Below, piece after piece: positions 6,485-17,707 of a stretch of 20,000 bases of DNA (position 1 is its first letter; each line of letters starts with the position of its first letter). The stretch comes from an uncultured virus (IMG/VR IMGVR_UViG_3300017783_005492). Taxonomy: Duplodnaviria; Heunggongvirae; Uroviricota; Caudoviricetes. Location: IMG/VR virus record IMGVR_UViG_3300017783_005492; one strand, given 5' to 3'. The notes under the pieces are model-generated. The model saw only the letters and a program-made list of their open reading frames with translations, was not told the origin of the DNA and ran no database searches. Position numbers and translations under genes: made by a program.

Positions 6485-9400
6485 ATGGCTGTTGATTTTA
6501 CGAAAAAAATATTTTCGGATACATATAGAGACGATTTCAGAGATAGCGATAACTATCATCGTATTCTCTTTAACTCGGGTCGAGCATTGCAAGCTAGAGA
6601 GCTTACGCAAATGCAGACTATTATACAAAGAGAAATTGAAACGTTTGCTTCAAACATTTTCAAAGAAGGTGCTGCAGTAAATCCAGGTGGAATTACTATT
6701 AACAAAGAATACGAGTTTATTAAGCTAGATACTTCTGTAAATATTTTTAGAACAGACCCTAACGATTATAATAACATAGAATTTACAGGAGCAACTTCAG
6801 GAGTTAAAGCTGTAGTCATTGAAGCTGTTGCCGCGGGTTCAGTCGATCCTGCAACACTATATCTTAGATACACTAAAACTTCAACAGGAACTTCATCTAC
6901 TAGTCCTATTAGATTTACTCCTGGTGAGGAAATTTCTGGAGGAGGATTTACTCTTACAGTTCAAACAACAAACACTGTTGCTAATCCGTCATCAGGTATG
7001 GGTACCCGAGCTTCTGTTAATACCGGATCATTCTTTGTACAAGGCCACTTCGTTTTCTTCGAAGACCAATCAATCATTCTTTCAAAATATAGCAATACTG
7101 TAACAGCGACTGTTGGATTCAAGGTAATTCAAGATATTGTAAAAGCATCAGACAATGAAGCTTTATATGATAATCAAGGAGCAATTCCTAATAAGGCAGC
7201 AGCAGGTGCTGATCGATATAGAATTAGACTAGAGTTAATTGACAAAGCCAATGTTGATTCTGATGAAAATTTTGTTTTTTATGCTAATGTAATTAATGGT
7301 TCCGTTTCTGAATTTGCAAATGGAACAAATCAATATGCAAAAATTGCAGACTATGTTTCACAAAGAGCATATGAAACAAATGGTAACTTTAGTGCTAAGC
7401 AGTTTAGAGTTAAATTTGACGAGAATGATTCTGATAACACTAAACTTGATGTAGATGTTTCTGCTGGTGTGGCTTATGTTAATGGCTATCGCGCTGAAAG
7501 CATGATTCCTAAAACAATTACTATTAATAAAGCACAAGAAACTACTGATCTTAATAACCAGGTTGTTGCTGCAAACTTTGGTAACTTTGTTGAACTTGAC
7601 TCAACAAACGATCCAAGACTAGAGGTGATGTTTAAGAGGCTTCCTAATCTAAACGCCTATCAAGTTAGAAATTTAAGAGATTCTGCTAATCACTTAGGCG
7701 CAACAATTGGTACTGCAAGAGCAAGATATATTGAAGAAGATGGTGCAGATTATAAGTACTATCTTTTTGATATTTCAATGAATAGCGGTAAATCATTTCG
7801 TGATGTCAAATCAATTGGTGGCTCAACTTCAGACTATGTTAACGTTAGGCAAACACGAGGTGAAACTGAACTTAAAGGAGCTATTAATAATAATCTTCTA
7901 TTCCCTCTTCCAAATAGTCGACCTAAGCAAATTACAGATATTAGTCTTGAAGTACAAAGATACTTTACTGGACAGTTTGACTTTTCTGGATCAGAAACAC
8001 TTACGTTAACAGCAAACGGTGAAACTTTCGCTTCTCCATCTGAGTGGATTTTTACTATTGATTCAAGTGGTAAAATGCTTACTAATAATGATGTGACTAT
8101 CACTGGTACTGGCACAGCAACTATTAATATTTCAGGCGGACCAACAACAACAAACTTTGAGTTATTAACTAAAGTTGATAAATCTCAAGGTACTGTTAGA
8201 TCTAAAACTCTAAATTCTCCTCCTACAACTGGACCAAAGGGTTTAGCAACCAATGGAACCTTTATTAAAACTACATTGGATTCAAATAACGTACTAGATC
8301 TTGCTAAACCAGATTTGTTTAAGGTAGTGCTTATTGCTGATGGTGAATCTGATGGCACAGATATTTCAAGTAGATTTATTGTTGACAATGGACAAAGAGA
8401 CAATTTTTATGCGCCAGCTAGACTAATTCTTAAGCAAGGTGCGGCGGAACCTGCTGGTAACGTTTTCTGCTCATTTTCATATTTTACACATGGTGCATCT
8501 GGCGATTTCTTTGCAGTTAACTCATATACTGGACAAGTAGATTATGCTGACATTCCAAACCACGAATTGTCAAATGGAACTGTAGTTAATTTAAGAGATG
8601 TATTAGACTTCCGTCCTCGATTGAAAGACGATGCGCTTGACTTTGCTGGTGGTACTGCTCGTATTAACGAGCTACCAAAGCCTAACTCTTTGATTAGATT
8701 TGATCAAGAAACTTATATGCCAAGATATGATAAACTCATTATCAAAGAAACTGGATTAATTGAAATCATTCCTGGTCAATCAGATCTTTCACCAAGATTT
8801 CCAGAAACACCAGAAAATTCATTAGAGCTTTATAAGCTTAAGCTAAATCCTTTTACTCTAAATGATTCAGACACTGACACTGATCTTATTGAGACAAAAG
8901 TATTTACAATGGCAGACATTGGTAAACTTGAAACTCGTATCGATCAATTAGAAGAAATAGCTACGCTTAATGCTTTAGAAACAAATCTAAGAACATTTAG
9001 TGTTTTTGATTCAACAGGTGCTGATAGAACTAAAGCTGGATTTTTAGTTGATAACTTTTCTGATCAACTAGCATCAGCAGTTAATAGTCCAGAATACGCT
9101 GCAGCGATTGATCCAAGAGAAGGAATAGTTAGACCTTCGTTTAATGAAGATCAAATCGGTTTTGTTTATGACTCAGATAAGTCAACCAATACAATTAAAA
9201 AAGGCGATAACGTTTATATTAAATATGATGATCTAAAGTTTATTGATCAGCCTTTATATTCTGGTACAATTAACGTTAACCCGTTTGCAGTTATTACTCA
9301 TACAGGTCGAGTTCTTCTTTCACCACAATCAGACGATTGGCGTGAAGTAAAAAGAGTACCACCAAGAATTGTAGATGGAGGATTCAGACTTAATCCTGCA

Positions 9401-11653
9401 CAGCAAAATCTTTGGAATAACTGGGAATGGCAGTGGGGTGGAACAGATCTTTCTAATCTTGCTGGTAGACAACTAGGTCGTTCAGTTTCGTCAGGATCTA
9501 GTCAAAGCGGTCGTACTATAACCACTACAACTACGACTTCAGTTACTAGAATTGTTCAAGGTGAAACTATTCGTGAAGTTATTGGCGATAGAGTTTTGGA
9601 TGTTGCAGTTATTCCGTTTATGAGATCTAGGAAAATTTATTTTAAGGCTGAAGGCTTAAAACCGGAAACAAGACTATTCCCTTACTTTGATGAAAAAGAT
9701 ATTTCTCAATGGGTAAGAGAAGAAACATTCCAAAGAACTTCAGATGATCCTACTCAATTTGGGTCTAGACACAATAATGCAACTGAGCATCCTGAAGGTA
9801 AGTCTACTCTTATTACAGATGAGACTGGTAAAATTGAAGGATCTTTCTTCATTCCTAATGGCGTTCAAAAATTTAGAACAGGTAGAAGAGAGTTTATGCT
9901 TTTGGACATTACAGTTCCAAAGCCTGCAGATTCTACTTCAAGAGCATTTGCTTCATATGAGGCAAACGGTATTCTTGAAACTAGACAACAAACTATTAGA
10001 TCAACAAGAAGCTTAAATATTAGAACTGATACACGTACTGCAAGATCTGTAAGAAGAATTCCAGATCCACCTGATGACGGTGGCCGCGAAGGTGGTGATG
10101 GTGGCGGCGGTGGTGATCCTATCGCTCAAACATTCTATGTTCCAAGGCCAGATGGTATTTTCTGTACAAAGGTTGGTGTAAGATTTGCTTCAAAAGATCC
10201 AATTGTTCCGGTTCAACTAGAACTAAGGCCTGCTGTTGAAGGTGCTCCTGCGGCATACCAAGTATTGCCGGGAGGTGTAGTATTTAAGGATCCGGCTGAT
10301 GTGAATATATCTGCTGATGGTACTGCTATCACCTACTTTGAATTTGATGAGCCTATTTACCTGAATTCGTATACTGAATATGCATTTGTTCTAAAAGCTG
10401 AAACAATTGAATATAACGTTTACATTGGTAAAACAGGTGAATTTATTCTTGGATCTACTGAAAGAAGAATTACACAGCAACCAACACTAGGTTCATTTTT
10501 CAAATCTCAAAACTCATTTATTTGGGAACCAGATCAAACAATTGATATGGCGTTTGAATTGCACACAGCTAGATTTAGACATTCAACAGCTGAAGCAATA
10601 TTGGAAAATGCAGATCCATCAATAAACCTTTTAACAACTGATCCTATTGATGTAACTAGTGGGTCACCAGCAGCTACAGTATTCCACCCTGATCATGGGT
10701 TTACTGATGGTGATCAGGTTATGATCACCGGACTTGACTCATCTGCTAGATACGCAGGAATCTTAGGTTCTTCTATTATGGGTATCCGCGCAATCGATAG
10801 TGCAGATAATGATTTCTTCAAAGTAGACTTTGATTCAGATGCAACCAATAGTGAAATTATTGGTAACAACTTAGTAGCAATGTCAAAACAGCAACTATTT
10901 GAACAAGTTGTTCCAGCTATCGATACTCTGGTGCCTACTTCTACTAGGATTACACCTACCGGTAGATTTACTACAGGACGGTCTATTGCTGGTAATGAAA
11001 CAAAATACACAAAGGCAACTACATATTTAACTTTGGCAGGAAGAGAAAACAATTACTTTAACGTTCCTCAAATTATTCCTTCTAAAGAACAAAGAGTTAA
11101 TAACCTAGGACTTGAAAAAGCTATAACACTAAAACTAAATATGATATCACAAAGTCCTGATGTTTCTCCAGTGATTGATATGCAACGAGCTTCTATGTGG
11201 ACAATTCATAATAGAATTGATTTCCAAAGCCAATATGGTGATTCTGCTGATAGAAATAATCCTATAACGTATGTTGATGAAACTAACTCTCAAAACGGAA
11301 CGTCTCTTGCTAAGCATATTACTAGACCAGTAACTCTAGAAAATGATGCCATTGGCCTTAAAATTTTGCTAGCAGCTAACCGGCCTTCAGCCTCTAACTT
11401 TAGAGTTTACTATAAAGCAATTGGTGAAGATATACTATTTTCGGATACTCCTTGGACAGAAGTTATAAAAGAAGTTGATCAACCAACAGATGAAAATCCT
11501 TCAATCTTTAGAGATTATGAATATTTAGTGGGTGGAGAAGACGGACTATCAACACCATTCTCGAAGTTTATGCTTAAGATTGTTATGAACAGTTCTAACA
11601 ATGCTTCGGTTCCTCAATTTACTGATTTAAGAGTGATAGCACTGAGCGCATAA
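6485..11653 (+). CDS. large virion structural protein, DUF4815/VrlC-like
   Basis: 1722 aa with YRDDF...NYHRILFNSGRALQARELTQMQTI, GADRYRIRL, FTMADIGKLETRIDQLE, GFLVDNF, NVNPFAV, PFMRSR, DPIAQTF and SPVIDMQR. This family follows gp8 in marine T4-like phages. Confidence 0.85.
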   Translation: MAVDFTKKIFSDTYRDDFRDSDNYHRILFNSGRALQARELTQMQTIIQREIETFASNIFKEGAAVNPGGITINKEYEFIKLDTSVNIFRTDPNDYNNIEFTGATSGVKAVVIEAVAAGSVDPATLYLRYTKTSTGTSSTSPIRFTPGEEISGGGFTLTVQTTNTVANPSSGMGTRASVNTGSFFVQGHFVFFEDQSIILSKYSNTVTATVGFKVIQDIVKASDNEALYDNQGAIPNKAAAGADRYRIRLELIDKANVDSDENFVFYANVINGSVSEFANGTNQYAKIADYVSQRAYETNGNFSAKQFRVKFDENDSDNTKLDVDVSAGVAYVNGYRAESMIPKTITINKAQETTDLNNQVVAANFGNFVELDSTNDPRLEVMFKRLPNLNAYQVRNLRDSANHLGATIGTARARYIEEDGADYKYYLFDISMNSGKSFRDVKSIGGSTSDYVNVRQTRGETELKGAINNNLLFPLPNSRPKQITDISLEVQRYFTGQFDFSGSETLTLTANGETFASPSEWIFTIDSSGKMLTNNDVTITGTGTATINISGGPTTTNFELLTKVDKSQGTVRSKTLNSPPTTGPKGLATNGTFIKTTLDSNNVLDLAKPDLFKVVLIADGESDGTDISSRFIVDNGQRDNFYAPARLILKQGAAEPAGNVFCSFSYFTHGASGDFFAVNSYTGQVDYADIPNHELSNGTVVNLRDVLDFRPRLKDDALDFAGGTARINELPKPNSLIRFDQETYMPRYDKLIIKETGLIEIIPGQSDLSPRFPETPENSLELYKLKLNPFTLNDSDTDTDLIETKVFTMADIGKLETRIDQLEEIATLNALETNLRTFSVFDSTGADRTKAGFLVDNFSDQLASAVNSPEYAAAIDPREGIVRPSFNEDQIGFVYDSDKSTNTIKKGDNVYIKYDDLKFIDQPLYSGTINVNPFAVITHTGRVLLSPQSDDWREVKRVPPRIVDGGFRLNPAQQNLWNNWEWQWGGTDLSNLAGRQLGRSVSSGSSQSGRTITTTTTTSVTRIVQGETIREVIGDRVLDVAVIPFMRSRKIYFKAEGLKPETRLFPYFDEKDISQWVREETFQRTSDDPTQFGSRHNNATEHPEGKSTLITDETGKIEGSFFIPNGVQKFRTGRREFMLLDITVPKPADSTSRAFASYEANGILETRQQTIRSTRSLNIRTDTRTARSVRRIPDPPDDGGREGGDGGGGGDPIAQTFYVPRPDGIFCTKVGVRFASKDPIVPVQLELRPAVEGAPAAYQVLPGGVVFKDPADVNISADGTAITYFEFDEPIYLNSYTEYAFVLKAETIEYNVYIGKTGEFILGSTERRITQQPTLGSFFKSQNSFIWEPDQTIDMAFELHTARFRHSTAEAILENADPSINLLTTDPIDVTSGSPAATVFHPDHGFTDGDQVMITGLDSSARYAGILGSSIMGIRAIDSADNDFFKVDFDSDATNSEIIGNNLVAMSKQQLFEQVVPAIDTLVPTSTRITPTGRFTTGRSIAGNETKYTKATTYLTLAGRENNYFNVPQIIPSKEQRVNNLGLEKAITLKLNMISQSPDVSPVIDMQRASMWTIHNRIDFQSQYGDSADRNNPITYVDETNSQNGTSLAKHITRPVTLENDAIGLKILLAANRPSASNFRVYYKAIGEDILFSDTPWTEVIKEVDQPTDENPSIFRDYEYLVGGEDGLSTPFSKFMLKIVMNSSNNASVPQFTDLRVIALSA

Positions 11654-11883
11654 TGAACGCAGAAAATAAATTTGGAAGATTTGTTGACATTGAAGGTCAT
11701 CCTGGCTGGAAAAGAGATATGAGATCTAATGCTATTGTTAGATCTAAAAGTGAAGATGGTAACGTTGCCAGGGCTGCTAAGAAGAAAAAAAAACAAATGG
11801 AAAATGATATAAATAACTTAAAGAATGAAATAGGTGAGATAAAAAATTTGCTCAAAATATTGGTAGATAAAAATGGCACGTAG
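11653..11883 (+). CDS. small hypothetical protein with C-terminal coiled coil
   Basis: 76 aa, coupled by TAATG to the upstream gene; VDIEGHPGWKRD...AIV followed by heptads (INNLKNEIGEIKNLLKILVDK). Similar small genes follow VrlC-like genes in T4-like phages. Confidence 0.75.
   Translation: MNAENKFGRFVDIEGHPGWKRDMRSNAIVRSKSEDGNVARAAKKKKKQMENDINNLKNEIGEIKNLLKILVDKNGT
11808..11815 (+). promoter_or_regulatory. T4-type late promoter (TATAAATA) inside the 76-aa gene
   Basis: Exact consensus 57 nt upstream of ATG 11873. Confidence 0.65.
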
Positions 11884-12400
11884 AATTAAAATTGAAATTG
11901 ATGATCTCGTAGATGATTGGCGCACCAAAACCAATACGTTAAGTAATTACTTTGGCGATCTTGACGAGCTTGCAACAGATGCAGACTCTGACCTCGTTGA
12001 AGCTATTAACGAAATCAACCTTAACTCTAAGGACTCTGCTGAAATCAATCGTATGATTGATTCAAACTTAGATTCTTTTTACGGTTTATATTTTCCAGTA
12101 GATTCAATTAATCTTGGGGATTTAGCAGTTGATTCAAATGCTATTCAAGCAAGATCAGTAGGTACATTAAAGCTTCAGCTTGATGCTGTCACAGGTATTA
12201 TTATTGCTACTGATGCGATTGACTCAACTCATGTTGGATCTCTCAGTCTTACAACTGCTATGGTTCAAGACTTTGCAATTACAAATGGTAAAATTGCAGA
12301 CAACACTATTCAGTCATCGAAGTTTGATTCGACTGTTACTCTCACAATTACAGATTCTGCGGGAACGATAGTAAAGACACTAAGATCTCCGGGGAGCTAG
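11873..12400 (+). CDS. putative virion fibre/structural protein with 10-residue repeats
   Basis: GDLDELATDADSDLVEAINEI fibre-type motif followed by about 10-aa periodic units (AVDSNAIQAR/SVGTLKLQLD/AVTGIIIATD/AIDSTHVGSL/SLTTAMVQDF/AITNGKIADN); 9 DS in 175 aa. Confidence 0.6.
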   Translation: MARRIKIEIDDLVDDWRTKTNTLSNYFGDLDELATDADSDLVEAINEINLNSKDSAEINRMIDSNLDSFYGLYFPVDSINLGDLAVDSNAIQARSVGTLKLQLDAVTGIIIATDAIDSTHVGSLSLTTAMVQDFAITNGKIADNTIQSSKFDSTVTLTITDSAGTIVKTLRSPGS

Positions 12401-12403
12401 TCG

Positions 12404-13348
12404 ATGGCTATTAGGTATCCGGTATACTGGGATCATGCGGCAGGCACAATTCGCCCCATGTCTGTTCAAGGCATACAAAGAATTCGCAAGCGCGTATTAT
12501 TTTTACATGGAAATTACAAAACAGTAAACATTCAAGTTGCCTCTGGAGTTCTTGGAGGTAATATGCTGACGATCTCCGATACTCGTAAAATGGCAGGAGC
12601 AGGTAATACTCACGTATCATCATTTCGTACTGCAGCACAAACTGCTGATGTAACCACAAAAACAATTAATTATAATCGTTTAATTCATTCACCTGATTCT
12701 ATGTCAGGTGTTACAGATACTAATAACAGAAGATACCCACTTTATCTTGATGGCACAAATAACTTAGTTGCTATGAACCAACAGGATATGTTTGACACCT
12801 TTATTACTCAAGCATTAGATGATATTGTGGATGGAAGCGATCACCCTGGAGTTTATAAGCTTTCAACTTTAACCAGTCTAGCTAATCACACAATTGTTTC
12901 AGGTACTCCTGTATTTACTGATACTAGAGCTAATGTTGGTGCCTATACGTCTGGCGGTATTAGTGAAACAAAAGATCAACCTACTACTATTAATAATTAC
13001 TATCTTCACATTGGTAATGCTTCTTTAACTACAGTTGAAAATCACCCTTTGCCTTTGAAAATTGGTGCAGATGATAACATAGAAACATACGATGCTGCTG
13101 CTTTAGATGTTACATTAGGAGAACTTTTGCAATATTATGGCGGAGCTAACGGAGGTACTGGTAACCAAATTTCGTATAACTGGACTGGAACAGGACAACA
13201 AAGAGGAACTGCCCTTGTAAACACTGTCGTTAATGGATCTACGTATAGAACTAGAAAAGTAGATACAAACGATTACCGCGCGCAGGAGCACCCTTCAGGA
13301 TCAGTAATTACAGTTAACACTTATACATTTTCTATACAAAGGTCTTAA
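12404..13348 (+). CDS. hypothetical virion-associated protein with three internal ~100-aa repeats
   Basis: 314-aa Thr/Gly/Asn-rich ORF in the late operon with a GGAG ribosome-binding site; repeated YP(V/L)Y.D and DTR...TIN.Y motifs. Confidence 0.6.
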   Translation: MAIRYPVYWDHAAGTIRPMSVQGIQRIRKRVLFLHGNYKTVNIQVASGVLGGNMLTISDTRKMAGAGNTHVSSFRTAAQTADVTTKTINYNRLIHSPDSMSGVTDTNNRRYPLYLDGTNNLVAMNQQDMFDTFITQALDDIVDGSDHPGVYKLSTLTSLANHTIVSGTPVFTDTRANVGAYTSGGISETKDQPTTINNYYLHIGNASLTTVENHPLPLKIGADDNIETYDAAALDVTLGELLQYYGGANGGTGNQISYNWTGTGQQRGTALVNTVVNGSTYRTRKVDTNDYRAQEHPSGSVITVNTYTFSIQRS

Positions 13349-13350
13349 TC

Positions 13351-14061
13351 ATGACATATCAATTTTATAACGCATATTTTACAAACGACACTAGAAATAC
13401 TATAGAAGTGGTTTATGTAAATCCTGATAATGATGAAGACGCATACGTTGAATATTTGAAAGCTGATAAATCACAAAAGGTTTATCAAGATCTTTTGGAA
13501 ATAGTAACCGAAGATCAGCTACATGAAAATACGTATAAGCGTATGAAAGTGATGCAGGAAGATTATGAAAAAGATGTTATTGCAATTGCAAAAGATCAAG
13601 GCTTAATTTATGATGTGGATGATCTAAATAGTAAACTATATGAAGTTCTACTTAAATCTATCTTTATTGACTTTGACGCAGAAGACCATAAAGAAAAACT
13701 TTTCTTAATTAAAATTGCTTTATTTGAAAATGAAGAAATTATGAATAGTAAAAATAAAGCTCTTAAATCTAAATTAAGAAAAGCTCCGACTTTACTTGAA
13801 GCCGTTAATATTTCTACAGAAATTGTTATTGAGGCTCGTGCAGCAAATACTCCTGCCACCACCCAGGCTGAAGCATCTTCTGATGATTCTGATTCATCAG
13901 AACAACAGGATACTCCGGTAAATCTCGAAACTCTGTCTGATACGAGCAATAACCATACCAATGAAAGTTTAGATTCGGACGAATCATCTCATGAAAATAT
14001 TGATCAATCCCTAGATAATACTTCAACTGATAGTAATCTGGATTCTGATCCCACAACTTAA
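13351..14061 (+). CDS. hypothetical protein: globular N-terminal ~160 aa plus an acidic Ser/Thr/Asp-rich tail overlapping the antisense gene
   Basis: 236-aa ORF starting 2 nt after the previous stop; the last ~78 codons overlap the - strand glycosyltransferase-like gene. Confidence 0.7.
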   Translation: MTYQFYNAYFTNDTRNTIEVVYVNPDNDEDAYVEYLKADKSQKVYQDLLEIVTEDQLHENTYKRMKVMQEDYEKDVIAIAKDQGLIYDVDDLNSKLYEVLLKSIFIDFDAEDHKEKLFLIKIALFENEEIMNSKNKALKSKLRKAPTLLEAVNISTEIVIEARAANTPATTQAEASSDDSDSSEQQDTPVNLETLSDTSNNHTNESLDSDESSHENIDQSLDNTSTDSNLDSDPTT

Positions 14062-14407
14062 ACACATCACTTCTATCACCGGTCCAAGATATAATGCTTG
14101 AATTTAGTGGTGTGTGCCATGCATCTCTCCACCAGGCCCAACAAACTTTTAATGAGTTTGACAAAAACCTATTGCAATCTCCTTTTATAATAACATCTAA
14201 GTCAAAATAAATATTTGTTCCAGTGCGAAACTTATCAAACATAATAAGTTTATTTGCAACCTGAAGATCGTATTTGTTTTCTTTTATCACCACAAATTCA
14301 TCGTATTCTAAATTAGAATACGTATCAATCATATGCTTTATGTTATTGACGTACCACTCACTATATTTTGTGCCAGTGTTAACTACAATAATTCTATCAA
14401 GGTGCAT
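13826..14407 (-). CDS. glycosyltransferase-like protein (GT-A fold, DxD motif)
   Basis: Likely start ATG 14407 (MHLDRIIVVNTGTKYSEWYVNNIKHMI), overlapping the radical SAM stop. Motifs GTKYS..YV, NKL.MF, NIYFDLDVII, NSSIISW and GIDQYF are typical of small phage glycosyltransferase-like proteins. Confidence 0.7.
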   Translation of the reverse strand: MHLDRIIVVNTGTKYSEWYVNNIKHMIDTYSNLEYDEFVVIKENKYDLQVANKLIMFDKFRTGTNIYFDLDVIIKGDCNRFLSNSLKVCWAWWRDAWHTPLNSSIISWTGDRSDVFKLWDQNPDYYQLKYYLGIDQYFHEMIRPNLNFHWYGYCSYQTEFRDLPEYPVVLMNQNHQKMLQPGWWQEYLLHEPQ

Positions 14408-15461
14408 GTAATTCTCTAATCTGATGAGTTTTCTTTTGTCTATTAGAACAATTTCTAACACATTGGCCAATTGGATCATTACCTTTTATACTATCTGGTA
14501 AAGCTTTTGTAAACCAGTCTGAATTTAATATTTCAGATAATTTCGTATGTAGTACATTATAAGACTTCAAATTTCTATTATAGTCTTCGCTATAAACAGC
14601 ATTTAAGTTTAATGCTGTTTTGCTGTTTTTATATACAGGATCGTGTCTTTGCCAAAAGTGTGCGTTTGCGTGAAAACAACAAGGCATAATTTGACCATCA
14701 GGGTTAACTACAATTTCGTTTCTCGGCAAAGCCCATCTACATTTTATTTCATAAGAATTATATCTGTCTGTACTTCCAGCAATTATTCCATCCGGCAATA
14801 CTTCTCTGTCAGCAGCTTCTAAACAATCTTTTTCTCCATGTTCATTAATAAATGATCTAATTTCTTTACCTCTAAATCTATCACTAATTACAAATGCGTG
14901 AGCAATAGATCCATGTGCTTTAACTAGGTTTTTAATTTCACTTTTATATTCTTGGTTGTGCTTAAATAAAATAGTTTGAGATTTTACTAATGATGTAGTC
15001 TGACTAAGCATATCCATATTTTCTAGAACTTTACTTAAGTGAGTAAATCTTCTATATTTTTCATGCATTTCCTGATTGATTCCATCAATATCAAATATAA
15101 CTTCTAATCTAGATCTACACTTAACACCTATATCCCACCACCAATCAGCATTTCGGATACTTCCATTTGTATCCATAGAAATTAAAGTGTCTGAGTTATC
15201 AATAATATATGCAAAAATTTTATCTAAGTCTTTGCACATAACCGGATCGCCCCATGTTCCACAAAACTTAAATATCTTAATACGCATCATTTCACTAGGA
15301 GGAAATGCTTTTTTGAACATATCAAGATCCCATTGTATTAGTGGCAGCCAATCGGTTTTACCTAAACCGTTTTCGCTTGTTCTATGACATTGAGGACAAC
15401 CAGCATTACAATAAGTTGATATGTCAAGAAAAACCTTTATTGAATTAGGATTCCATTTCAT
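14397..15461 (-). CDS. radical SAM enzyme with C-terminal twitch/SPASM-like Fe-S domain
   Basis: CNAGCPQC (CxxxCxxC), FCGTWGDP, TNGS, FDIDG; C-terminal C...VNPDGQIMPCC...C...C. GGAG ribosome-binding site upstream. Confidence 0.9.
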   Translation of the reverse strand: MKWNPNSIKVFLDISTYCNAGCPQCHRTSENGLGKTDWLPLIQWDLDMFKKAFPPSEMMRIKIFKFCGTWGDPVMCKDLDKIFAYIIDNSDTLISMDTNGSIRNADWWWDIGVKCRSRLEVIFDIDGINQEMHEKYRRFTHLSKVLENMDMLSQTTSLVKSQTILFKHNQEYKSEIKNLVKAHGSIAHAFVISDRFRGKEIRSFINEHGEKDCLEAADREVLPDGIIAGSTDRYNSYEIKCRWALPRNEIVVNPDGQIMPCCFHANAHFWQRHDPVYKNSKTALNLNAVYSEDYNRNLKSYNVLHTKLSEILNSDWFTKALPDSIKGNDPIGQCVRNCSNRQKKTHQIRELHAP

Positions 15462-16236
15462 CTATTTCTCCAAAGGTAATATCAAATTCTTTTTTTATGT
15501 GGTGTAAAAAGTGCGATGATTCTCCTCCTCGAGGCGCATAATCGTCAAGCATAAAATTCCAAGCCATGCCAATATTTGTGTAAGGTACATTATATTTTTC
15601 TATCATCCATGATATAAACACTTCGTTATTAGGTCTCCAAGATCTTGAAATTTCTTCTGGATATAGATTATCAATACACGATTCTTCAAAAACTTTATAT
15701 GCTTCAGGCAATCTTTTACTAAAATTTAAGTTTTGGATTGCTTTACGATTACCTCCAATAACTCCTGTGTTAATCATTGTATCATTGCCAGACATGTTTT
15801 CTAAAATTAACATTGATTTTTTAGCACAAGTTTTTGCATATACATTCATTCTATCCCAGTCATTTGCTTGAAACTTCCACTTTAATTCATTTGCTCCAGG
15901 AGTTCTAGACATAGAATAGGCGTTAATTTTATTCATATCAAAGTATTCAAAAAAGTTGACATCTGTTTGAGGGATTACATCAAAATCTAAATACAAAACT
16001 TCGTCATATATTTTTGATAATTCTTCAAGTTTATTTAGTTTCATAAATTGAATTTTATCGTAGTCGGTTTCTTTTATAATGTATAGTTTATAATCAGCGC
16101 TAACTTTTGTTGCGTATTCTAATTGTTTTGTTTCTAAGTGTAGTTTGTATTTCTTAAACTGATTTTTTTTATAATCAGTTGAAGACATATGCTCACCTAC
16201 ATTTTCACTGTATAGACTGTATATGATTCTTGACAA
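15445..16236 (-). CDS. glycosyltransferase-like protein (GT-A, DxD), paralog of the upstream gene
   Basis: VLYLDFDVIP, INTGVIGG, NNEVFISW, WNFMLD and FLHHIKKEF. Probable TTG start at 16236 (MSRIIYSLY), 8 nt after AAGGA. Confidence 0.75.
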   Translation of the reverse strand: MSRIIYSLYSENVGEHMSSTDYKKNQFKKYKLHLETKQLEYATKVSADYKLYIIKETDYDKIQFMKLNKLEELSKIYDEVLYLDFDVIPQTDVNFFEYFDMNKINAYSMSRTPGANELKWKFQANDWDRMNVYAKTCAKKSMLILENMSGNDTMINTGVIGGNRKAIQNLNFSKRLPEAYKVFEESCIDNLYPEEISRSWRPNNEVFISWMIEKYNVPYTNIGMAWNFMLDDYAPRGGESSHFLHHIKKEFDITFGEIDEMES

Positions 16237-17098
16237 AATCAAAATCCTTTTTAATGCAATGAACTAATTTAGTTCCTTTTGGTATGTATGAAAACTTATC
16301 CATAAAGTAATGCCAAGAAGGACTTAGTTTATTGTATGGTATTTTTTTGCTTATCATTAAATAGCTCCACAAAGTTTCATTATCATACCCAAATAATTTT
16401 TGTATGTAGTCTGGATATATACTATCTTGTTCTTTTACTAAGCTATCCATATACTTAATATTCTTTTCAAAAGAATTAAAATAATCAAGAAGCTCAAGAC
16501 TTTTTTTATTTGACCCAATTATTCCAGTATTAAAAACTTCAATATCGCTAGTGCTAAAATCTCTATTAAATAGCATTGCTTGTGTATTCCAATATTTTGC
16601 AGTAGGTGATCTATTGCTATGTTTTTTTGTACTACGTTTCATCCTTAGTAGAGCTTTATTATTAGTTTCAATTCTTGTTTGACTTTCAGCCGTACCTGAC
16701 ATTATAGTTAAGCCTGGCCATCTCTTAAAAAAACACTGATCTGTCATTGGAATAACGTCAAGGTCTAAATATAAAACCTCATCATATTTTTCAGCTAAAT
16801 CATATAAGAGCTTAATTTTATAAAAGTTAACAATGTTATATTCAGTGATTGTGCTTGGCATAGTTTTTGCATATTCTTCATACGCTTTATCATATGTAAA
16901 ACAAAAATAGTCTGCGCCTATTAAAGATGCATACTGCTTTTGCTTTTCTATAAGCCAAGGGGAATGTATTAAAAATTGTTCTTTTGTATGTAATGTTTTG
17001 GAAATTGTCGTATCTACATGAGGAGGTTGATAATCTAATTTTTCTTCTGGAATATCTACGTATAAACTAAAGACTACTTTATTTTTATAAATACTCAT
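16205..17098 (-). CDS. glycosyltransferase-like protein (GT-A, DxD)
   Basis: Likely start ATG 17098 (MSIYKNKVVFSLYVDIP) with AGGA 6 nt upstream. YASLIGADY, NFYKI, VLYLDLDVIP, FNTGIIG, YDNETLWSY, WHYFMD and LVHCIKKDF resemble GT8/GT34-like motifs. Confidence 0.78.
   Translation of the reverse strand: MSIYKNKVVFSLYVDIPEEKLDYQPPHVDTTISKTLHTKEQFLIHSPWLIEKQKQYASLIGADYFCFTYDKAYEEYAKTMPSTITEYNIVNFYKIKLLYDLAEKYDEVLYLDLDVIPMTDQCFFKRWPGLTIMSGTAESQTRIETNNKALLRMKRSTKKHSNRSPTAKYWNTQAMLFNRDFSTSDIEVFNTGIIGSNKKSLELLDYFNSFEKNIKYMDSLVKEQDSIYPDYIQKLFGYDNETLWSYLMISKKIPYNKLSPSWHYFMDKFSYIPKGTKLVHCIKKDFDFVKNHIQSIQ
17086..17093 (+). promoter_or_regulatory. T4-type late promoter (TATAAATA) embedded in the first codons of the antisense glycosyltransferase gene
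   Basis: Exact consensus ending 8 nt before ATG 17102. Confidence 0.7.
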
Positions 17099-17101
17099 AC
17101 T

Positions 17102-17707
17102 ATGTCCTATTACAAAGAAGCTCTTAAATCTGTTGACACTGCATTGCGTCAATGGCCGCACAATGTTGACTTAGCTTTATCTATAGCTAACCATGTAAAT
17201 GAAAATCAAATGGCAACCAAAAAGTGGTTGACTCTTGAATTGGCTGACATGTGCGAAATGAAAGAACTTGTAAATCCTAATGTTTTAATTCACGCCGGGT
17301 GGTTTGGCCTAGTAGGTGATATGATTAGAACTTCTAAAATAAAACCTAATAAAGTATGTATAATGGACAAAGATCCAATGTGTCAACCTATTGGCGGTTG
17401 GATGTATCCTAAGATTAAACATACGTGGGGTAAAATAGAAGATTGGAATCCAGATGATGAACACTTTGATATTATTGTATTGCCTTCATGCGAGCATATC
17501 ACAGATGAAACATTAAACAACTTTCTTTCTAAAAAAAATGAAAGCACTTTAGTTTGCTTAACTTCAAATAATATGCATGGTCATGAAGATCATATTAATT
17601 CTAAAGGGTCTGTTCATGATTTTTCAAATTCAGTAAAGTTAAGAATACTTAAAGAATGCGAACTTAAGCTTGATGGTTATACACGGTTCATGATCTTTGG
17701 GGTATAA
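17102..17707 (+). CDS. class I SAM-dependent methyltransferase-like protein
   Basis: VLIHAGWFGLVG (motif I-like), IMDKDPMC (acidic end of strand 2), FDIIVLPSCEHI and CLTSNNM...DHIN. Confidence 0.65.
   Translation: MSYYKEALKSVDTALRQWPHNVDLALSIANHVNENQMATKKWLTLELADMCEMKELVNPNVLIHAGWFGLVGDMIRTSKIKPNKVCIMDKDPMCQPIGGWMYPKIKHTWGKIEDWNPDDEHFDIIVLPSCEHITDETLNNFLSKKNESTLVCLTSNNMHGHEDHINSKGSVHDFSNSVKLRILKECELKLDGYTRFMIFGV

Follow-up and report, generated by a model that had tools for sequence, protein, structure and literature searches.

Can both strands of one short stretch of phage DNA encode protein, and can the second reading be recognized from the silent sites of the first? This question is raised by a stretch of 20,000 nucleotides (nt) from the uncultured virus IMGVR_UViG_3300017783_005492 (Caudoviricetes), hereafter called the window, in which two convergent genes overlap tail to tail. 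Gene A on the plus strand ends in a C-terminal tail that is encoded antisense to the 3′ end of gene B, a small glycosyltransferase gene on the minus strand (Table 1). In bacteria and phages, long overlaps of opposite-strand genes tend to be written off as faulty annotation, and convincing antisense overlaps are rare and normally need ribosome profiling. The A/B pair comes with a natural control, in that related lineages have overlaps of four different lengths and dozens of relatives that lack a long overlap show no such change at the wobble positions of B. Based on these comparisons, we consider it probable, at roughly 0.8, that the tail of A is an overprinted and translated C-terminal extension whose polarity has been selected through the wobble sites of B.

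Codon use in the overlap

The original prediction had placed the two open reading frames (ORFs) at 13351-14061 on the plus strand and 14407-13826 on the minus strand, with 236 nt in common, and all of these coordinates were recovered here. The shared segment includes both stop codons. Base by base, the first codon position of A faces the first position of B, the second position of A faces the third of B, and the third position of A faces the second of B; the wobble base of B is the second codon base of A, as had been claimed. The codon bias reported for B was reproduced on recount, with 15 of 17 Gln, Lys and Glu codons ending in G inside the overlap compared with 4 of 13 outside it (Fisher P = 0.002). 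In the other coding sequence of the window, such codons end in G in 168 of 869 cases (19.3%), the two strands being alike (133/683 and 35/186), and the binomial probability of at least 15 of 17 at a rate of 19.3% is 1.8e-9. When all codons of B are considered, the wobble bases are A 8, C 4, G 32 and T 33 in the 77 codons inside the overlap, and A 32, C 17, G 19 and T 48 in the 116 codons outside. Since G is up while both A and C are down and T is unchanged, the shift is specifically one from A to G and not a general rise in third-position GC content.

The consequences of this bias for A follow from the genetic code. Gln, Lys and Glu codons of B place T at the third position of the opposing A codon, and since no stop codon ends in T, their wobble base can never close the A frame. 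The earlier suggestion that the G bias in these codons keeps the A frame open thus does not hold. The other half of that suggestion, that the synonymous sites of B look shaped towards a hydrophilic tail, stands: the choice between A and G at these codons bears on tail polarity only, giving either NTT (Phe, Leu, Ile or Val) or NCT (Ser, Pro, Thr or Ala) in the A frame.

Relatives with long and short overlaps

Relatives were collected by an alignment-based scan of viral contigs, which returned 135 candidate stretches, 97 of them encoding relatives of A, and 80 loci were kept. A scan of the viral contigs with a single A protein as query returned no relatives, and no relatives were found in a scan of genome contigs. 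A second scan of viral contigs added only one of the known loci again (L005, recovered as L089) and a 99.9% copy of L086 (L090). A convergent B overlaps A in 41 of the 80 loci, and in 39 of these 41 the overlap measures 4-53 nt. In another 15 loci, one of them a doubtful partial match, B lies 491-1587 nt further downstream, and in the remaining 24 no B was present in the fetched flank, some of these flanks being cut by contig ends. Pelagibacter phage Mosig, the sole named relative found, has an A/B overlap of 14 nt. The record nearest to the window (G001) ends at about position 13327 in window numbering, short of the overlap, and a 150-kb metagenome contig (L085) is nearly identical to the window; it shows seven differences over 5.7 kb, all of them outside 13301-14494.

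Long overlaps were observed in four lineages: the window (236 nt), L005 (248 nt), L012 (146 nt) and L086 (167 nt), the last being a metagenome locus. All four overlaps have the same phase, and in all four lineages the A frame runs on into the tail without interruption. In a tree built from the folded domain of A and the first 112 residues of B, with the overlapped columns excluded and 44 rows left after de-duplication, the four long-overlap rows form one clade (ultrafast bootstrap 99, Shimodaira-Hasegawa approximate likelihood ratio test 96) that is nested among short-overlap rows. Most simply, A would have been extended once, before the members of this clade diverged, and its stop would then have come to lie at different places in the descendants. 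Across the tailed clade, the folded domain of A has diverged to about 43% identity.

Outside this clade, locus L010 (2992-3564) encodes an A protein of 190 amino acids (aa) with a 30-residue tail rich in Ser, Thr, Pro and Glu. This tail derives mostly from about 56 nt of extra DNA between the usual end of A and B, the overlap being only 33 nt, and it appears to represent a second, independent route to a polar A tail.

The wobble shift follows the boundary of each lineage

The preference for G-ending Gln, Lys and Glu codons inside a lineage's own overlap recurs in the other three tailed lineages, with 17/20 inside and 1/12 outside in L005, 9/11 and 4/18 in L086, and 6/10 and 2/28 in L012. Pooled over all four lineages, the counts are 47/58 and 11/71 (Fisher P 3e-14, a value that overstates independence, the lineages being related). 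The same alignment columns behave differently according to whether they are overlapped: in the stretch beyond the A stop of L086, none of eight such codons ends in G in L086 compared with five of six in the window, and beyond the A stop of L012 the counts are 1/12 in L012 and 7/8 in the window. In each lineage, the switch from A-ending to G-ending codons occurs within a few codons of that lineage's own stop. The pooled wobble composition is A 0.13, C 0.06, G 0.40 and T 0.42 inside the four overlaps, and A 0.30, C 0.16, G 0.13 and T 0.41 outside.

In a comparison of the homologous 3′ third of 48 unique B genes, which predates the inclusion of L086, more than 45% of Gln, Lys and Glu codons end in G only in the window and L005, and most others show 0-25%. 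The 45 other unique B homologues with no long overlap reach at most 9/20 in this third. The expectation in the original prediction that G would be elevated at third positions only where the overlap exists is thus confirmed, since the elevation is found in long-overlap lineages and inside their own overlap only. Relatives in which A stops early lack the bias; had they kept it, this would have spoken against the proposed link.

Composition of the tail

In 40 other B homologues, the corresponding frame antisense to the final 77 codons contains 3-9 stops (mean 5.1) and has a hydrophobic fraction of 0.27-0.49 (mean 0.40). In the window and L005, the same frame has no stops and a hydrophobic fraction of 0.09. 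In L086 and L012, it becomes hydrophobic and stop-ridden directly past the A stop of each.

The observed tails were compared with synonymous recodings of the overlapped B codons, generated from the codon usage of the window (100,000 per lineage). For the window, the frame remained open in 1.3% of the recodings and the mean hydrophobic fraction was 0.357 +/- 0.038, compared with an observed value of 0.115 over residues 159-236 (78 aa). The corresponding figures were 2.0% open and a mean of 0.386 against 0.098 observed in L005, 6.3% and 0.445 against 0.145 in L086, and 17.8% and 0.476 against 0.208 in L012. None of the 100,000 recodings in any lineage reached the observed value. The mean was equal for recodings with open and with closed frames; because open recodings are as hydrophobic as the rest, a selection of cases by openness cannot explain the polarity of the tail. 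Relative to the recodings, Ser/Thr and Asp/Glu are enriched and Gly, Cys, Arg and Trp are depleted. In the 78 residues of the window A protein that lie over B, Asp/Glu make up 0.244 compared with 0.157 after recoding, and Ser/Thr 0.333 compared with 0.147. The Asp/Glu enrichment is present in all four tailed lineages (P 0.001-0.014). The five DS dipeptides that had been counted in the window tail are present; the four lineages have 5, 4, 2 and 1, and the dipeptide is not conserved as a motif.

The products of genes A and B

A and B are both real genes, as seen from the homologues and the confident folds of both products. For B, the start was set at the ATG at 14407 by homologue starts, and not at the upstream ATG at 14479. 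A model built on an alignment of 38 homologues has a mean predicted local distance difference test score (pLDDT) of 92.2 and a predicted template modelling score of 0.90 over the full length, the overlapped C-terminal third included, with no segment below 50. Foldseek returned 54 PDB chains at an expectation value (E) of 0.001 or less, and every one of the matches listed either is a glycosyltransferase or includes such a domain. The best match is the capsid glycosyltransferase of Paramecium bursaria chlorella virus 1 (PBCV-1; 2p72/2p6w/2p73, E 2.4e-5 to 5.5e-5, template modelling score 0.66-0.68), followed by GT6 and GT8 enzymes such as glycogenin and GlyE. The FDLD motif of B (F68, D69, L70, D71) is invariant across the 38 aligned sequences; DxD is the metal/nucleotide-sugar motif of GT-A glycosyltransferases. 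B gave no Pfam match at E <= 0.01 and no PHROG match at E <= 0.001, and it is thus filed by predicted fold only, as a GT-A-fold enzyme and not as a member of GT8 or another sequence family. The glycosyltransferase label given to the minus-strand gene beforehand agrees with this fold match. Full-length B homologues with 66% identity occur in two viral contigs (L002 and L003) that have no convergent partner gene, so the C-terminal third of B is kept on its own account. In these contigs, B adjoins a clamp-loader-like gene, followed by co-directional small genes, and this small glycosyltransferase gene thus appears to move between genome modules.

The folded domain of A aligns with all 46 other rows of the A alignment. 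In the AlphaFold2 model, blocks of this domain have pLDDT values of 73-96 (residues 1-160) and 81 (residues 161-170), and the tail, with values of 47-60, is predicted to be disordered. Most A homologues are without a tail: ten homologous proteins comprise four tailed (236, 236, 211 and 211 aa) and six tail-less ones (162-163 aa). A gave no Pfam or PHROG match, a Foldseek search against the PDB returned nothing at E <= 0.001, and a wide structure search gave only generic three-helix-bundle matches of 50-60 residues with Z <= 7.3. In the Atlas, A falls with virus-only hypothetical clusters of 155-172 aa, and the leads obtained there (DUF4376, XkdW, tail fibre assembly) are weak, all below 0.9. 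No function is assigned to A from fold or family leads.

The hexapeptide DSNLDS of the A tail (within TDSNLDSD, 14020-14040) is also found in the tail-fibre-like protein encoded two genes upstream (11873-12400), which contains many (A/P)(V/I)DS repeats. Given the composition of both, this sharing could be due to chance.

Occurrence in public sequencing runs

Twenty public runs contain the stretch or part of it, and six of these are RNA libraries. Contigs of four runs, of which three are RNA libraries, were aligned with the window, and no differences are listed over 13355-14312. A DNA contig spans 13208-14131, a contig from an RNA library spans 13000-14290, and one from RNA library X17 spans 13617-13857. 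In addition, one RNA-library contig matches the L086-type tail. RNA library X16 yielded a single contig of 247 nt (13819-14065) that coincides almost exactly with the overlap, its flanks being uncovered; it comes from one run and carries no strand information. Such a contig could arise from double coverage or from a protected RNA duplex of convergent transcripts, and the uncovered parts in X16 and X17 are uninformative.

Genome setting

The window derives from a T4-like marine myophage and encodes gp6-, gp8- and gp9/10-like baseplate wedge proteins. Tail-fibre-like genes come after the baseplate wedge genes and the gene for the DUF4815 protein. The A/B pair sits where tail-fibre and glycosyltransferase genes are located in SAR11-type myophages. 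The DUF4815 protein occupies the same position relative to A/B as the 'putative VrlC protein' of Mosig, and with it begins the host-recognition cluster that has been reported from pelagimyophages. On the minus strand, B, a radical SAM/SPASM gene and two GT8-like genes form a block (13826-17161) whose tight packing suggests one operon, and the stop of the radical SAM/SPASM gene overlaps the start of B by 11 nt (14397-14407). Such a gene set is in keeping with a block for glycan modification. In PMC7029224, genes of this kind are assigned to the host-recognition cluster of pelagimyophages, and the glycosyltransferases are read as modifiers of the host surface.

Table 1. Features of the window at and around the A/B locus (positions in window numbering)
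Feature	Position	Strand	Description
Gene A	13351-14061	+	236 aa; directly after tail-fibre-like genes; virus-only family
A folded domain, residues 1-166	13351-13848	+	Three strands and helices; common to all homologues
A C-terminal tail (putatively overprinted), residues 167-236	13849-14058	+	Acidic, Ser/Thr-rich; antisense to the last 77 codons of B
Overlap (putatively dual-coding)	13826-14061	both	236 nt, both stop codons included
Gene B	13826-14407	-	193 aa; stop 13826-13828; small GT-A fold with DxD motif (FDLD)
Radical SAM/SPASM gene, upstream of B	14397-15461	-	Pfam SPASM 3.2e-06, Radical_SAM 2.3e-04; phrog_21308 6.8e-25
GT8-like glycosyltransferase gene	15445-16242	-	Pfam Glyco_transf_8 2.7e-05 (at cut-off)
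GT8-like glycosyltransferase gene	16205-17161	-	Pfam Glyco_transf_8 6.4e-03 (below cut-off)
1722-aa protein	6485-11653		DUF4815 E 8.5e-51; phrog_358
ORF of 117 aa	13608-13961	-	Across the end of the A folded domain and part of the overlap; Leu/Ser-rich, without gene-like signs
Weak terminator-like hairpin	13787-13804	-	Just 3′ of the B stop, within A coding sequence; 6 pairs, 3 G-C

The minus-strand ORF of 117 aa is probably a by-product of the depletion of stops in this region. A head-to-head overlap of 60 nt (17102-17161) between the minus-strand ORF at 16205-17161, which has a GTG start, and a plus-strand ORF at 17102-17707 is probably caused by a mis-set start codon and not a real overlap. 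The scan for promoters and terminators returned nothing beyond the weak minus-strand hairpin after the B stop; with two sites matching the terminator consensus compared with 0.9 expected, this hairpin is no evidence of function. No relevant match was found in Rfam, and no repeats were found in the overlap.

Interpretation and alternative explanations

The observations suggest a sequence of events in which the ancestral stop of A would have been lost or shifted in the common ancestor of a small pelagimyophage-like clade. The A frame would then have gained 146-248 nt by reading on along the strand opposite the 3′ end of B, giving the tail of about 70 residues seen in the window. B would be the older gene and the dominant constraint, keeping its amino-acid sequence and fold and leaving only its wobble positions free. 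The identity between the window and L005 in the overlap (0.78, 0.83 and 0.68 at B positions 1, 2 and 3) points to B as the dominant frame; in the A frame, the third position is the most conserved and the second the least, the reverse of what is seen in a region that mainly codes for A. Selection on the tail would disfavour T (Phe, Leu, Ile, Val) and G (Arg, Gly, Cys, Trp) at its second codon positions and favour C and A, the counter-selection of Arg, Gly, Cys and Trp being weaker than that of hydrophobic residues. The outcome would be otherwise rare G-ending Gln, Lys and Glu codons in B and an acidic, disordered tail rich in Ser, Thr, Ala and Pro in A, the selected property being a polar, soluble and non-aggregating tail. 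To our knowledge, translation is the sole process that reads DNA in a fixed triplet frame, and a frame- and boundary-specific bias at silent sites that alters only the residues of the A tail thus argues for a translated tail under selection against hydrophobic residues. This selection appears to act on the composition of the tail and not on particular sites or a particular sequence.

Several points weigh against this interpretation. Translation is inferred from sequence comparison; the contigs from public runs establish presence only, not strand, level or translation, and a library made from RNA may contain DNA as well. Common descent links the four tailed lineages and the tail probably arose once, so that only the differing boundaries provide replication within the clade. 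The codon usage of the window served as the null also for L005, L086 and L012. A stop in the tail would result from no more than 6 of the 121 B-synonymous single changes, which makes the persistence of the open frame weak evidence. Furthermore, conservation of synonymous sites within the overlap is hardly above that beyond it, and no sequence-specific constraint on the tail was detected in the three lineage pairs compared. The test, which scores identical codons among conserved degenerate residues, gave 31/45 inside and 51/84 outside for the window and L005, 23/31 and 40/80 for the window and L086, and 16/27 and 44/90 for L005 and L086. The reduced synonymous divergence that was to be looked for in the overlap thus amounts to a slight excess of identical codons. 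With site-specific constraint this weak, we abandoned the notion that selection preserves the tail sequence as such. In line with this, tblastn aligned a 'tail' in L006 and L009 despite interrupting stops, and the similarity of tails between lineages, these matches included, is largely due to the conservation of B.

Could the long A frame be an artefact, with B not coding through the overlap or with a frameshift or sequencing error in A? The ortholog-length rule of PMC2478687 would indeed class A among genes extended at the 3′ end by a stop-codon mutation. B is conserved and confidently folded over its C-terminal third, and the codon-position identities follow the B frame; L085 is identical to the window over 13301-14494, the sequence recurs in many public runs, and three diverged relatives have the same architecture, all of which makes such an error highly improbable. 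A more serious objection is that the tail is untranslated or A unexpressed, and that the tract of G wobble bases stems from mutational asymmetry or a recombined segment with the open frame as a by-product. Long antisense ORFs are common and mostly not selected (bioRxiv 10.1101/724807), and according to PMC2478687, most long overlaps in annotations reflect errors or stop-codon mutations. In addition, a stop would soon follow wherever such a tract ends, so that the tracking of the boundary alone leaves the direction of cause and effect unfixed. What speaks against such a by-product is that the first A-frame stop lies at 14059, so that a ribosome on A would inevitably synthesize the tail, and that the strongest signal resides in Gln, Lys and Glu wobble bases, which cannot affect stops in the A frame. 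Recodings that are open by chance are as hydrophobic as others, and the rise in G together with a fall in C misfits both a GC-rich donor and a symmetric bias. Codons change from A-ending to G-ending close to the stop of each lineage, and on balance we regard an untranslated tail as quite unlikely.

If the tail is translated, its function might be tied to its neighbours, either as an acceptor for O-glycosylation or as an acidic docking tail for the glycosyltransferase cluster. The fold of B is closest to a viral capsid-glycosylating enzyme and also resembles protein-glycosylating GT8 enzymes, two further GT8-like genes and a gene for a radical SAM enzyme share the block, and the tail is rich in Ser and Thr (0.33), predicted to be disordered (pLDDT about 50) and more acidic than recoding predicts in 4/4 tailed lineages; the separate tail of L010 hints that polar A tails are recurrently favoured. 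The richness in Ser, Thr, Ala and Pro is nevertheless an automatic consequence of C in place of T at the second tail position and does not count as independent evidence. No conserved acceptor motif emerges from the DS counts given above, tail length and sequence vary between lineages, and site-specific synonymous constraint is weak. Most members of the family, the only cultured relative included, are tail-less and yet keep the A/B pair, and the glycosyltransferases of pelagimyophages are read as host-surface modifiers (PMC7029224). The acceptor peptide put forward in the original prediction thus gains no support, and a role of the tail tied to its neighbours seems unlikely to us. That the tail would be a substrate or docking peptide of the very block to which B belongs, the two strands of one 236-nt segment encoding enzyme and peptide, is a rather improbable idea; if true, the two would have to co-evolve through shared nucleotides.

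In the translated, polarity-selected extension that we favour, the tail may be of use to the phage or may simply be prevented from doing harm. A benefit is suggested by its persistence across a clade as diverged as this one, by its excess acidity and by the independent tail of L010. Against a benefit, with truncation possible by so few changes, persistence comes cheap, and most of the family is tail-less. If the interpretation is true, the locus provides a case, drawn from sequence only, that an antisense extension is read by ribosomes, and it would show a newborn protein segment adapting solely via the wobble positions of the underlying gene, first towards polarity and disorder. The wobble-base switch at the boundary, followed across relatives with different stops, may serve as a reusable test for other candidate overlaps.

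Comparison with known systems

Overprinting in viral genomes, in which coding arises de novo in a second frame of an existing gene, is described in PMC3744397. The A/B locus resembles it in that the older frame, here B, is kept, the new product is disordered and compositionally odd, and phylogeny marks the tail as younger. It differs in that the A tail lies on the opposite strand and is a C-terminal extension of an existing convergent gene, no new gene being formed, and in that the distortion of codon usage is found in the older gene and is not a marker of the younger one. De novo protein C-termini arise by loss of stop codons (PMC4494051), and A would likewise have extended downstream after stop loss, with a polar, disordered extension. 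In contrast to that process, A extends into the antisense of a conserved enzyme gene and not into non-coding DNA; with the extension lying over the conserved B, adaptation would be possible only through the silent sites of B.

Among prokaryotic overlaps longer than 60 nt, only convergent ones might be real according to PMC2478687, and antisense overlaps of at least 50 nt are annotated in 82 of 544 Myoviridae reference genomes according to PMC7017920. The tail-to-tail overlap of A and B, exceeding 60 nt, is of the kind surveyed there. Unlike such surveys of annotation or ortholog length, the four A/B lineages with their differing overlap lengths form an internal control for selection on the second frame. 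Antisense overlapping genes have also been reported from E. coli O157:H7 and Pseudomonas aeruginosa (PMC9927249, PMC8850804), and these share with the A tail the feature of coding opposite an established gene. They are embedded ORFs with ribosome profiling, whereas the A tail is an extension of a gene end for which the evidence is comparative sequence analysis only. On the enzyme side, the fold of B resembles the A64R glycosyltransferase domain of PBCV-1 over about 210 columns, both being small virus-encoded GT-A proteins; the identity between the two is only 10-11%, and B is known by its predicted fold. As overprinting and de novo C-termini are already established, the value of the A/B case lies in its unusually clean internal control.

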